A stretch of 64,000 nt of DNA from Chitinophagaceae bacterium (GCA_037045515.1 JBAOIC010000023.1:7093-71092); one strand, 5' to 3'; numbered from the stretch's first letter, positions 1,186 through 9,336 are shown. Numbers and translations: made by a program. The notes: generated by a model from the sequence alone, not told the origin.

Positions 1186-1372
1186 TCAGGCCCGGGCCAC
1201 CTCGCCGTGGTGCTTGCAGCGTCCGACGTAGCCAGCGGGGGTGACCCGCACGGCCAGGCGGGTCCCGCAACGGGCGCAGAAGCGGGGTGGGTCCAGCGGG
1301 CGGCCACAACCCGGGCAGTCGGCATCCGGCGCGCCCGCAGGACGTGCAGTGCCCTCCCGCCTCGTCGCTCAC
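1186..1372 (-). pseudogene. bsaP: BsaP-like small zinc-ribbon protein (biotin synthase auxiliary protein), one 1-nt insertion
   Basis: Minus strand reads [14 protein letters not shown], then after skipping 1 nt near 1330, PDADCPGCGRPLDPPRFCARCGTRLAVRVTPAGYVGRCKHHGEVARA*. Its GTG start overlaps the bioB TGA (GTGA at 1369-1372). Position immediately downstream of bioB matches the mycobacterial arrangement. Confidence 0.55.
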
Positions 1373-2450
1373 ATGACCTTGCCCAGCACCCCGATGGGCA
1401 TCTTGAGGTCGTCGAGCATGGCGAGGTCCTCGGCGGGCGTACGTCCGAGCGTGGTCAGGTAGTTGCCCACGATCAACGCGTTGATGCCCGAGGTCATCCC
1501 CATGGCCTGGAGCTCTCGCAGCGTCACCTCGCGGCCGCCGGCGTAGCGCAGGATCACCGCCGGCAGGGCGAGGCGGAACAGGGCGATCCACCGGATCGCC
1601 TCCAGCGCCCCGACCACCGGCGCGTCGGCCAGGGGCGTACCCGGCCGGGGGTTCAAGAAGTTCAGGGGGACCTCGGTGGGGTCGACGGCTCGCAACTCGG
1701 CGAGCAGTTCGAGTCGTTGGTCGACCGACTCGCCCATCCCCAGGAGGGCCCCGCAGCACAGCTCCATGCCGTTCTGGCGGACCAGCTCGCAGGTGGCCTG
1801 ACGGTCTTCCCAGCTGTGGGTGGTGACCACCCGGGAGAAGTGCGAGCGGGCCGTCTCGAGGTTGTGGTTGTAGCGGTGCACGCCGCCTTCGCCGAGGCGC
1901 CGGGCCTGGTCCTCGGTGAGGATCCCCGGCCGACACGGCCACGTCGAGCCCGGTCTCCTGGCGGATGATCGGGACGAGCTCCAAGATCCGTTGGAGGGTG
2001 CGCTCGTCGGGGCCCTTGACGGCCAGGACGATGCAGAACTCCGAGGCCCCGAGCTCGGCGGTCTCCCGGGCCGCGGCCAGGACCTCGTCGGTGTCCAGGA
2101 AGGGCGTGGCCTTCACCGGGGTGTCGAACGACGACGACTGGCTGCAGAAGTGGCAGTCCTCGGGGCAGCCGCCGCGTCTTGGCCGACAGGATCCCCTCGA
2201 CCTCCACCTCGGGCCCGCACCAGGAGAGGCGGACCTCGTGGGCGAGCGCGGCCAGCGACGGCACCGAGGCGTCGGGCACGTGGGCCAGGTCGGCCAGTTC
2301 GTCGTCGGTGAGCTGGCGTCGCTCGTCGAGCAGCGCCGTCTCCGCGGCCCGGATGGCCGCCCGGGCGGCGTCCGCCGACAACGGTTCCCGACGGGAGGCG
2401 GCCGGGCCGGGCCGGGAACCGAGGGTGACGGGCTGAGGAGTCTCGGACAT
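1369..2450 (-). pseudogene. bioB: biotin synthase (radical SAM), two 1-nt insertions
   Basis: Three minus-strand pieces read MSETPQ...EVEGILSAKT / [34 protein letters not shown]...LDVAVSAG / [28 protein letters not shown]...GVLGKVM. Removing 1 nt near 2174 restores GGCPEDCHFCSQ (CxxxCxxC). Removing 1 nt near 1925 restores [24 protein letters not shown]. Confidence 0.85.
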
Positions 2451-2666
2451 GGCGACCGAGCCTACCGACCTGGGGTTTTGGCTGCCCCAACCCCGGCGAC
2501 CGGGTCTGGGGCGGTCAGCCGAACCCGCGGTTCGCGCCCGTATGGGGCCGACGGCCCATTTCGGCGATGAACCGCGAATGAGGCTCAACCATGGTGCGGG
2601 AACGCCGATTGGCTACAGGAAGACCGCCGGGGCACGTTTGTCCACAGGGGAGCGGTCAGAACCGAG

Positions 2667-5062
2667 ATGACGATGACTACAGCATCGAGCCAGACCCGTG
2701 CGCCGCGGGCGACGGTGCCCATTTGGGTGAAGATGACCGCAGCCCTGATCGTGCCGCTGGCCACGGTCGCGGCCATGTCGCTGGTGCAGATCAACCAGGC
2801 CAAGGACAAGGTGGCTCGCGTCGACCGCGAGACCGACCTCGCCCGGGTGGCCCTGGCCCCCGGTGGCGTCGTCGACGGCCTCATCGTCGAACGAGGCGAC
2901 GCCACGGTCTCGGTGCTCGGGCTTCGTGAGACCACCACGCTGCCCACCAAGTCGCTCGCAGAGTCGATCGCCATGACCGACAAGGGCGTGAAGGACCTCC
3001 GGGCCGCGGTTGCCGCCGGTGGCCCCGAAGCGGCCGCCGCCTTCGGCGACACCCTCGACGGGGTGGAGCGCGACCTGGAGTTCGTCCGCAAGGACGTGGT
3101 TGCGGCCAGCAAGAACGCAGGCCTCGACAACTGGGACCTCTCGAACACCGCGTATTTCGCCTACAAGGGGATCATCGACGACCTCATGCGGGCCAACGAT
3201 GCCCTCGCCGCGAAGATCACCGATCCGCGAGCTGCAGGCGGCCGCCGTCACCCTGAACGAGGTCAACCGGCGCCCACGACGCCATCAGCAACGTGTCCCG
3301 AGCCGTCGGCACGGCCATCGCGCCGAGCGAGGGCAACGCGGCACGTGACGCCGTGGTCGAGTACCTCGCCGCCTTCCGCCAGTCCCGCGTCGGCCTTGTC
3401 GAGTCGGACCGACGGGCCGTGGAAGCCCCAGGTGGAGGCGTACGCCAAGAACCCCGCCTACGACCAGTTGAACAAGAAGGCCCAGGAGTTCCTCGACACC
3501 GGGACGATCGACCTCGATGAGTTCATCGGGCTCAACCCGAAGGTCGACAACCGCAAGACCGCCCCCATGGGCACCACCCAGGCCATCGCCCAGAAGGTCG
3601 ACTCCACCCTGACGGCCAGGATCGAGGAGCTGCGATCCGACGCCCGGTCCGAGCAGAACCGCTACACGATCCTGTCGCTGGCGGTCCTGCTGGCCGCCAC
3701 CGTGATCGCCACGGTGATCGCCCGCTCGGTCACCAGGCCGATGCTCTCGCTGGCCCGACAGGCCGACGAGATGGCCACCACCCGTCTCCCCGCCGCGGTG
3801 AGCCAGGTGCTGAACACCGCCCCCGGCGCCGACGTGACCGTGCCCGAGATCCCGCCCGTCAAGGTCAGAATCGCGCGACGAGGTACAAGCCGTCGCAGCG
3901 GCCCTCAACAACGTCCAGACGTCGGCTCTCGACCTGGCCGTCGAACAGGCCACCCTGCGGCGCAACATCGCCGACTCGTACGTGAGCATGGGTCGCCGCA
4001 CCCAGAACCTCATCGGCCTCCAACTGGAGCAGATCAGCGAACTGGAGCACGACGAGGCGGACCCCACCGCCCTCGAGGCGCTGTACCGCCTCGACCACCT
4101 GGCCACCCGCGCTCGACGCAACGCCGAGTCGCTCGTGGTGCTCGCCGGCACCGAGAGCCAGCGCCACGGAGCGCCCCCCGCTCCCATGACCGACGTCATC
4201 CGCGCCACCCTCTCGGAGGTCGAGGCCTACCAGCGGGTCGACGTCGCCCACCTCGATGACGCCTGGGTCCTGGGCGCCGTCGCTGGCGACCTCGTGCACC
4301 TCTTGGCCGAACTGGTCGAGAACGGCCTGGCCTTCTCGCCGCCGTCCAGCCGGGTGGAGATCGAGGGCCACGGTTCTGCCGCCGGGTACACCCTGCGGGT
4401 CGTCGACCACGGTGTGGGCATGACCGGCCCAGAAGATCGAGGAATCGAACCGGCGCCTTGCCGGTCGAGAGAACTTCACGGTCGCCCCGTTCGCGGTACC
4501 TGGGCCACTACGTGACCGGCCGCCTGGCGGAGCGAGTCGGGGCTCGGCGTGAGCCTGCACCCCGGTCAGGGCGACGGCATCGTCGCCGAGATCGTGCTCG
4601 CCCCCAGCGCCCTGCTCGGCGAGGCACCGGGGCTCCGCCGAACCGGCTCCCGAGCTCGCCCACGACGCCCCCACGTCGGCGCCCGAGGCCCCGAACGCAG
4701 GGCGCCGACCGCCAACGGCGTCGACGCTGCTGCCAACGGCTCCCCGACGTCCGAGCCGATGCAGGCCGGGGGCCTCGGCGAGAACATCCGGGTCGACGGA
4801 CGCCCACCGGCAATCGAAGACCTCCCCGACCTCGAAGAGCTGCCCACCGGCCTGCGCAAGCGGGTTCCGGGGCGTAGCTCGCAGGTGGTCCGGGACCGTT
4901 CGCCCCTGCTGAGGTCGGGTGCCAGCGAGGCCTCCCCGGTGGCGTCGGATGCACTTGGCCGACGGGGACCAGGCCCAGAACCTGGCATCCTTGCTGACCT
5001 CGTACACCTCAGGATTGGAACGAGGGCGGGAAGACGCGGCAGCGGGCGACAGTGAGCGCTGA
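2667..5062 (+). pseudogene. CvnA-like (conservon-type) sensor histidine kinase with a nitrate/nitrite-sensing-type N-domain, HAMP and HATPase; about 8 frameshifts
   Basis: Recognisable blocks lie in successive frames: MTMTTASS...AAKITDP / ELQAAAVTLNEVN / AHDAISNVSRAVGT...VESD / PWKPQVEAYAKNPAYDQLNKK...TRPMLSLARQADEMA / DEVQAVAAALNNVQ...RRTQNLIGLQLEQISELEHDEADPTALEALYRLDHLATRARRNAESLVVLAG...LAELVENGLAFSPP...VVDHGVGM / IEESNRRLAGRENFTVAP / SRYLGHYVTGRLAERVG / LGVSLHPGQGDGIVAEIVL / ...LTSYTSGLERGR. The frame index advances by +1 at about 3228, 3270, 3412, 3862, 4433, 4490, 4535 and 4950. Confidence 0.75.
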
Positions 5063-8553: not shown

Positions 8554-8575
8554 CTAGCAATCTTGTTGTGTAGCC
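8553..8575. other. fusion scar / filler between two truncated genes
   Basis: GCTAGCAATCTTGTTGTGTAG is about 40% GC inside roughly 70% GC DNA. It contains the GCTAGC palindrome and puts a TAG directly upstream of the LLM reading frame. Confidence 0.5.
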
Positions 8576-8725
8576 CCTTGGACCCGTCGTCTTGCTGTCG
8601 CCGGTCGAGGTCGTACCCGACCACGTCGTAGCCCTGCTCCGCCGCCCGGACCGCCAGCGGAAGGCCGACGTACCCCTGTCCGATCGACCGCGACGCGGGT
8701 CGCGGCGTTGCCCGTGGATTCGCTC
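8576..8725 (-). pseudogene. N-terminal fragment (about 45 codons) of a nucleotide-sugar dehydrogenase (UDP-glucose/GDP-mannose dehydrogenase family)
   Basis: Minus strand from the ATG at 8725 reads MSESTGNAATRVAV, then after a 1-nt shift IGQGYVGLPLAVRAAEQGYDVVGYDLD. This is the Rossmann GxGxxG N-terminus. The similarity stops before the scar. Confidence 0.45.
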
Positions 8726-8847
8726 ATGTTCTCCCTGTTCCCCCTGGCCTGCTGCGGCGGGCAACGCTACCGCCCGGGGTCGCCCCCGCCCGGTCTCCCG
8801 GGGGCTCGGGGTACAGTCCGCTCACCCTGCCCCCCACGGAGGTCGTC

Positions 8848-9336
8848 GTGTCCCCTCGAGCCCTGCAGAACCTGGTGGGAGGTGCTGCCGTCGATGCCGC
8901 CGACGGCGCCACCATCGACCTGGTCGACCCGTCCACCGGCGAGGTCTTCGCCACCTCGCCGCGCTCGGCGCCGCAGACGTCGATGCCGCCTGCCGGGCGG
9001 CGGCCACCGCCTTCGAGAACGTGGCGCGACACGACGCCGAGCGACCGCCAGCGAGCGCTGCTGAAGCTCGCCGACCTCGTCGAGGAGCACGCCGACGAGC
9101 TGGTCGCGCTCGAGTCGGAGAACACCGGCAAGCCGATCGGCCTCACCGCAGAGGAGGAGGTCCCCCCGATGGTGGACCAGATCCGCTTCTTCGCCGGGGC
9201 CAGCCCGCGTCCTCGAGGGGACCTCGGCCGGCGAGTACATGGCCGGCCACACCTCGTGCGAATCCGCCGGGAGCCGATCGGCGTGTGCGCCCAGGTCACG
9301 CCGTGGAACTACCCGATGATGATGGCGGTCTGGAAG
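8848..9336 (+). pseudogene. aldehyde dehydrogenase family protein, N-terminal third only, several frameshifts
   Basis: GGAGG at 8838-8842 precedes the GTG at 8848. Reads LQNLVGGAAVDAADGATIDLVDPSTGEVFATSPRS / GAADVDAACRAAATAFEN / WRDTTPSDRQRALLKLADLVEEHADELVALESENTGKPIGLTAEEEVPPMVDQIRFFAGA / ARVLEGTSAGEYMAGHTS / IRREPIGVCAQVTPWNYPMMMAVWK. It ends abruptly where IAPALAAGN would be expected. Confidence 0.8.

Follow-up and report, generated by a model that had tools for sequence, protein, structure and literature searches.

The DNA examined here is a 64,000-nt stretch (the window) of a contig deposited under Chitinophagaceae bacterium (GCA_037045515.1, JBAOIC010000023.1:7093-71092), and the genes in question are those of positions 1186-9336, all of which are frameshifted. 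In all likelihood this contig of a public metagenome-assembled genome (MAG) is mis-assembled and chimeric and carries consensus errors that are nearly all insertions, none of its frameshifts being a biological mutation. The window falls into two compositional parts, with 68-75% GC from position 1 to ~9340 and ~32% GC from ~9340 to 64000; GC drops from 0.72 to 0.38 over about 1 kb, and at base level the switch lies at 9336/9337. As judged by homology, positions 1-9336 are shown to be Acidimicrobiales DNA, made up of two or more pieces that do not adjoin each other (1-8553 and 8601-9336), and positions 9399-64000 to be the chromosome of a widely sampled Chitinophagaceae genome. Two fillers, of 47 and 62 nt, link these pieces and cut genes in the middle of their open reading frames (ORFs).

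Frameshift load of the high-GC block and of the chromosome

Frame changes were tabulated with a purpose-written local protein-to-DNA aligner that has explicit +1, +2, -1 and -2 states and that returned no frameshifts within the true coding parts of intact relatives (45-80% identity). At the DNA level, the high-GC block was compared with reference loci (here given L numbers): L001 (92% identity), L171-L175 (~99% apart from indels) and L087 (87%). L001, an ENA contig, covers window positions 1186-3818 at 92% nucleotide identity, and the block is thus 8% diverged from its best reference. Within 1186-9336 there are 49 firm frame-breaking events, comprising 48 insertions (42 of 1 nt and six of 2 nt) and one deletion, an excess of insertions with a binomial P of 9e-14 against 50:50. 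The density is 6.0 events per kb, and the events are clustered (variance/mean 4-5), with clean runs of 0.5-1 kb. Along the block, the phase in which third-position GC peaks shifts at intervals of a few hundred bases, and no in-frame stop codons were found in the genes of 1186-9336 when the frame was followed.

Stop-to-stop fragments of the block have Pfam matches to bioB, a NIT/HATPase_c kinase, a Roadblock protein, an ABC ATPase and an ABC-2 permease; the family Aldedh is matched over profile positions 5-146 of 461 only, and a luciferase-like monooxygenase (LLM) was recovered by blastx against the ORFs of related loci. The small gene downstream of bioB, named bsaP in an earlier note on this DNA (1185-1368, minus strand), has a 1-nt insertion near 1326, seen with the aligner against the L001 ORF and in the alignment to L001 DNA. 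The biotin synthase gene bioB (1369-2450, minus strand; Pfam Radical_SAM and BATS; 98% amino-acid identity to P0002) has 1-nt insertions at 1927 and 2174. The NIT/HAMP sensor histidine kinase (2667-5053, plus strand; Pfam NIT and HATPase_c), aligned against L001, L002 and seven further kinases, shows eight firm +1 events (3228, 3271, 3392, 3870, 4426, 4490, 4540 and 4640); two to four more lie in its unconserved tail (4700-5050), where the sign is ambiguous (one -1 or two +1) and the closest reference for the C-terminus stands at 46-61% amino-acid identity, and these are kept outside the firm count. A single +1 event, near 5490, was placed in the Roadblock/LC7 protein (5098-5514, plus strand; Pfam Robl_LC7) with the aligner against L002. 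The ABC ATPase (5711-6708, plus strand; Pfam ABC_tran) is the most heavily affected gene, with 25 firm events between 5753 and 6654, all of them insertions, which together add 30 nt. It is followed by the ABC-2 permease (6705-7614, plus strand; Pfam ABC2_membrane), with insertions at 6808 (AC), 6910 (T) and 7032 (C). The LLM gene (7683-8553, minus strand), which is without its first ~62 codons, was aligned against six relatives and has +1 events at 7797, 7999, 8225 and 8349, its blastx frames running -2, -1, -3, -2, -1 in succession. Two gene fragments complete the block: the first ~42 codons of a UDP-glucose-dehydrogenase-like (UGDH-like) gene (8601-8727, minus strand; cut at 8601), with an insertion at 8686, and the first ~160 codons of an aldehyde dehydrogenase (ALDH; 8848-9336, plus strand), with events at 8969 (-1), 9020 (+1), 9201 (+1) and 9258 (+2). 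The event at 8969, GGG to GG relative to Aquihabitans, is the only firm deletion of the high-GC block. Programmed ribosomal frameshifting was considered and rejected, as every homologue is one uninterrupted ORF, and an apparent LLM stop at 8556 was rejected as an alignment artefact lying beyond the point, at the internal join, where homology ends.

The Chitinophagaceae chromosome (11535-64000) can be compared with near-identical assemblies. The window proteins MnmE, an adenine-deaminase-like protein, an AraC-type protein and a Cys/Met-PLP protein have exact copies in dozens of contigs in public collections. L168 and L169 agree with the window at every base over 4.3-4.6 kb (100% identity), and identity of the low-GC part to L165, L168, L176-L178 and L182-L184 is 99.2-99.9%. 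Over 52.5 kb, comparison with these assemblies reveals 22 insertions peculiar to the window and a single firm deletion, at 40622, or ~0.44 events per kb. Over 21 kb shared with L182 there are seven insertions and no deletions, and against the near-identical strain L168 there are two insertions and no deletions; the region 34-64 kb has further insertions unique to the window, and the deletion at 40622 lies there. Insertions are found in ffh (57217), in an IMPDH-family gene (35848 and 36523) and in SOD (51730), and seven lie in a BNR protein; the low-GC genes that are broken in the window are intact in L165, L168, L176-L178 and L182-L184. In an amino-acid permease (27970-29316) three +1 insertions, at 28705, 28724 and 28784, shift and then restore the frame, and a nonsense codon at 28708-28710 was rejected as a product of these three insertions. 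Four further low-GC frameshift candidates (integrase/HTH_17, OEP/Cys_Met_Meta_PP, YtxH/holin-like and the ExbD pair) were likewise rejected, being separate adjacent genes.

These tallies can be set beside those of the earlier note, which had put the load of the high-GC block at roughly 40-50 frame changes in about 8 kb, in good agreement with the 49 counted here. Its figures for bsaP (one), bioB (two), the kinase (about eight), Roadblock (one) and LLM (four) are reproduced by frameshift-aware alignment, and its ranges for the permease (3-4) and ALDH (4-6) include the three and four firm events found. The ATPase is indeed laden with frameshifts, but the 15-20 given for it fell short because triplets of insertions restore the frame. 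The nearly pure +1 spectrum that had been described holds as an insertion bias (48/49) and not as a pure +1 pattern, given the six two-base insertions and the deletion. Alignment with the sign of every indel recorded, which had been proposed as a check, upheld the bias at 48:1 with no stops, and so agrees with the reported lack of nonsense substitutions. The first ~1.2 kb had been described as undisrupted, and the gene at 15-746 shows no frameshift in frameshift-aware alignment to its L007 homologue (54% amino-acid identity). For the low-GC part, one lesion per 4-5 kb had been estimated, which fits the number of broken loci (~11-12), whereas the insertions themselves are denser, at ~1 per 2.3 kb. 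The difference in density between the two blocks is large, as claimed, but amounts to ~14-fold rather than 15-20 fold, the low-GC part having ~1/14 of the high-GC density.

Identity of the inserted bases and the proposed consensus error

The inserted bases avoid homopolymers: they equal a neighbouring base in 6 of 23 cases in the high-GC block and 4 of 20 in the low-GC part, against backgrounds of 45% and 55%. Their identity can be followed best in the ABC cassette (5711-7533), for which near-identical DNA is available. Positions 5709-7428, covering the ATPase and most of the permease, differ from L171 by 28 insertions, no deletions and 12 mismatches; identity of the cassette to L171-L175 is 96.3-97.1% with gaps included and ~99% apart from indels, and every gap is an extra base of the window. 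Twelve of 23 inserted bases fit a synonymous alternative allele of the flanking base (null 6.8 +- 2.1, P = 0.015), and 20 of 23 match the base found in related cassettes at a flanking position occupied by another base in L172, a score with a null expectation of 9.05 +- 2.3 that was reached in none of 3000 simulations.

In the low-GC part, the insertions at 38664, 38717, 46600 and 57217 are literal unions of two reference haplotypes, where 0.2-0.6 such cases would be expected by chance (P between ~7e-5 and 4e-3). At 57217, L179 reads GATGTTGACA and L180 reads GATGTAGACA, and the window reads GATGTTAGACA. The six insertions of LLM and bioB are mixed, with three at polymorphic sites, two that extend homopolymers and one between invariant bases.

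A consensus-building step, either of the graph or partial-order type or a polishing pass, probably wrote both bases in series where reads differ by a substitution, and the same step would never drop a base supported by any read, so that no deletions would arise. Such a step would account for the sign of the events, for their avoidance of homopolymers and for the way in which they vary with heterogeneity and depth. The error rate would then track read disagreement together with lack of depth, from 0.44 per kb in the chromosome and 6 per kb in the foreign block to ~26 per kb in the ABC ATPase, where reads from another Acidimicrobiales population, related and widespread, appear to have piled onto the backbone. 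The data point to read disagreement, whether between mixed strains or mixed populations, as at least one driver, rather than low depth alone. In L171-L174 the cassette has a thiolase gene on one side and SWIM/SNF2 genes on the other; in the window, near-identity to L172 begins exactly at the ATPase start codon and ends at ~7533, 78 nt before the permease stop, and the last 26 permease residues resemble the L007 type. It is more likely that reads from a related, abundant population were recruited to a homologous backbone than that natural recombination placed the cassette here, and such recruitment would also explain why the insertion hot spot lies within the cassette.

The strongest alternative, which is nevertheless unlikely, dispenses with strain mixing and attributes the extra bases to ordinary random error in a single long read, or in a few of them, at the end of a chimeric contig, where depth is low and quality perhaps worse at high GC, the allele matches being incidental. 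It is in keeping with the highest density being found in the foreign block, with the bursty distribution of events, which resembles dips in read quality, and with the several LLM and bioB insertions that are found at invariant sites or lengthen a homopolymer. Raw reads would, however, have added deletions and mismatches, whereas one deletion and few non-synonymous differences are seen; nor would such errors be expected to steer clear of homopolymers, to hit the relatives' flanking allele in 20 of 23 cases or to produce four unions of known haplotypes in the chromosome.

Several observations weigh against the proposal of a chimeric contig with consensus errors that insert alternative alleles. 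Outside the ABC hot spot only some of the insertions fall at polymorphic sites, and a component of plain read error must also exist. Depth and read disagreement, to which the insertions are attributed, are inferred rather than seen. The deletion-biased, homopolymer-associated pattern typical of long-read errors is not what the window shows, with its 48:1 ratio in favour of insertions, and the first 1325 nt contain no events where ~8 would be expected at the mean rate. The boundaries of the cassette, from a start codon to a point inside the permease, could also reflect natural recombination. Finally, a search of the fillers for sequencing adapters (Oxford Nanopore (ONT) Y-adapter, rapid and PCR adapters, native-barcode flanks, SMRTbell, Nextera and TruSeq) gave nothing above shuffled sequences; one nominal P of 0.044 among 18 tests is not significant.

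Selection in the broken genes and the joins between source molecules

With the extra bases removed, dN/dS is 0.076 for bioB, 0.147 for the kinase and 0.054 for ALDH, and third codon positions account for 55/72, 60/85 and 50/58 of the differences from relatives in these genes, respectively. Values of dN/dS between 0.05 and 0.15 in genes with 2-25 frameshifts each indicate that the frameshifts are foreign to the evolutionary history of the genes. To judge from these substitutions, bioB, the kinase and ALDH did not decay under relaxed selection and are incompatible with decaying pseudogenes. It is accordingly very improbable that the frameshifts are real mutations, with the high-GC block a decaying Acidimicrobiales stretch of natural pseudogenes and only the low-GC join artificial, even though all genes of 1186-9336 are broken and the 8% divergence from L001 leaves room for a separate lineage. 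Decay in bacterial genes is reportedly deletion-biased, as Mira, Ochman and Moran (in 2001) and Kuo and Ochman (in 2009) are said to have found. Reductive evolution of this kind resembles the window in its runs of neighbouring frameshifted genes, and the window differs from it in having no deletion bias, no nonsense codons and strong purifying selection in its substitutions. Moreover, the same spectrum is present in low-GC housekeeping genes such as ffh and the amino-acid permease, which are intact in assemblies 99-100% identical to the window. The technical cause favoured by the earlier note thus gains support from three sides, namely the purifying selection that has been kept, the insertion-only spectrum of the low-GC part when set against assemblies of 99.6-100% identity and the non-random choice of inserted bases in the cassette and the haplotype unions.

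At the main join, homology to the high-GC Aquihabitans locus stops at 9336/9337 and low-GC homology begins at 9399. On the left, ALDH is broken off at profile position 146 of 461, at codon ~160, after the motif PWNYPMMMAVWK; on the right, a low-GC mobile-element gene (9399-9806, minus strand; aligner against L170) stops short after its first 134 residues, its L170 homologue having 244. The intervening 62 nt (9337-9398; 42% GC, not assigned to a strand) match nothing and contribute the stop codon with which the cut low-GC gene ends. Positions 9399-11391 are the truncated end of an integrative element beside mnmE, which includes a 141-aa fragment of the 244-aa gene and, at 9806-11318 on the minus strand, a tyrosine integrase and an HTH_17 excisionase-like gene (both by Pfam) at the end adjoining mnmE. 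L165, L168 and L169 lack the element, L166, L167 and L170 have a different one, and two independent JGI long-read contigs of the same Chitinophagaceae organism terminate within the mobile-element region. As a side observation, L166, L167 and L170 carry a 60%-identical element at the same mnmE-adjacent site.

The second join, at 8554-8600, had been missed in the earlier note. LLM homology to all relatives stops at 8553-8555, and the 87% nucleotide alignment to L087, the chromosome of Aquihabitans daechungensis (Acidimicrobiales, Iamiaceae), starts at 8601 and extends over 8601-9337 (91% amino-acid identity). The UGDH-like fragment, whose translation is IGQGYVGLPLAVRAAEQGYDVVGYDLD, and ALDH, which is transcribed divergently from it, occur in the same arrangement in Aquihabitans, whose 20-kb locus contains none of the genes of 1-8553. 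The filler (47 nt, 55% GC, not assigned to a strand) aligns neither to the LLM relatives nor to the Aquihabitans locus, and its similarity to the 62-nt filler is not significant (P = 0.07). A further join at 1186, where the L001 megablast match starts, was rejected: sensitive alignment extends to 1086, and the first gene of the window is syntenic in L007, L002 and L024.

The origin of the left-hand piece is also reflected in its relatives. L002 has bioB, the kinase, Roadblock and LLM in the same order, and all good database matches of bioB are from Acidimicrobiales or Microthrixaceae, other than a protein from a MAG labelled Chitinophagaceae. To that protein, the 184-aa MEI2708001.1 ('MAG: radical SAM protein [Chitinophagaceae bacterium]', from a 95,280-nt contig), the bioB fragment of the window is 99% identical, and it is evidently a gene call from this very contig. 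Exact look-ups of P0001 and of window positions 9381-9806 and 29848-31803 gave no match.

That the two blocks come from different source molecules, as the earlier note had concluded, is borne out by Acidimicrobiales genes on one side, a Chitinophagaceae genome on the other and genes truncated on both sides of the join; to draw that conclusion from the difference in frameshift density alone was weak logic, though the conclusion was correct. There is only a very slim prospect that the join is real and that a Chitinophagaceae integrative element carries actinobacterial DNA through inter-phylum transfer. The integrase and excisionase-like genes lie just 0.5-2 kb from the join and the element is strain-specific, as such a transfer would have it, yet the join falls inside the element rather than at its end, with the mobile-element gene and ALDH both cut. 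The foreign DNA, moreover, consists of unameliorated housekeeping genes of 70% GC, with identities of up to 99% to contigs of free-living Acidimicrobiales, and a second join interrupts the foreign block in mid-gene. Where a horizontally acquired island would have element ends or att sites and complete genes, the join here lies within the element and within genes. The combined supposition, that the 9336-9399 join is real, that the element captured ~9 kb of Acidimicrobiales DNA and that the extra bases stem from insertion-prone mutation of non-functional cargo, is so improbable as to be negligible.

Relation to known artefacts and neighbouring features

Indel errors in long-read assemblies are reported to fragment ORFs, an observation ascribed to Watson and Warr (in 2019). 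The window resembles such artefacts in that many genes are split by indels of 1-2 nt, ORFs heal against close references, density varies with support and housekeeping genes are affected. It differs from them in its ratios of insertions to deletions (48:1 in the high-GC and 22:1 in the low-GC part), in avoiding homopolymers and in that most hot-spot insertions duplicate an alternative allele. Fragmentation of ORFs by indels in long-read genome and metagenome assemblies has been described with proovframe (10.1101/2021.08.23.457338), with Kastor (PMC12007338) and by Sereika et al. (PMC9262707), and the errors usually found are biased towards deletions and linked to homopolymers (PMC12007338). In agreement with this profile, the Nanopore-like contigs L166, L167 and L170, from the same Chitinophagaceae organism, have 18-34 homopolymer deletions and 1-3 insertions, the opposite sign to the window. 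These contigs (JGI 3300045721, 3300045669 and 3300045647) also show losses of a GC dinucleotide, for example GCGGTG[GC]CACAAA.

Chimeric contigs and contamination in MAGs have been reviewed (PMC8640167) and are the subject of the Deepurify preprint (10.1101/2023.09.27.559668). As in such contigs, composition and taxonomy change abruptly within the window, genes are cut at the join, and the join is situated within a mobile element that varies between strains and at which other assemblies break off. The window departs from the known cases in that the foreign end is a mosaic in its own right (1-8553, 8601-9336 and the 99% L172-like cassette at 5711-7533, although the boundaries of the last are open to the other explanation given above) and in that its joins carry 47-62 nt of unassignable filler.

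The deposited MAG contig thus contains ~9.3 kb of Acidimicrobiales DNA and ~70 spurious inserted bases, and gene calls made from it are mis-attributed and truncated. The value of the finding lies in flagging contamination and in database hygiene, and it carries no biological significance. It also offers a diagnostic that can be applied without reads, in which three features occur together: insertions only, avoidance of homopolymers, and inserted bases identical with the alternative allele at the site next to them. This three-part signature points to a consensus step that mishandles mixtures of strains.

Some features of the window lie apart from the broken genes. The first gene of the high-GC block (15-746, plus strand) is intact, belongs to no Pfam family, is syntenic with relatives of the bioB locus and has blastx matches in L002, L007 and L024. 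Between it and the bsaP-like gene, a stretch of ~415 nt (771-1185) is missing from that position in L007; it includes an ORF of 87-89 aa (889-1155) with a third-position GC of 0.89 and no Pfam match. No tRNA genes were found by ARAGORN within the 64-kb window, and a tRNA as the target of integration was accordingly rejected. Near the right end of the window, the C-terminal extension of ribosomal protein S16 (61109-61157) has 27-30 extra bases in a proline/alanine-rich repeat compared with three references, which looks like natural in-frame variation in repeat length rather than error. An IS5-family transposase (DUF4096 and DDE) at 61745-62673 is shared by the window and L180 (GCA_963853005.1) and absent from L179 and L181, and the window copy bears one spurious insertion, at 62507.

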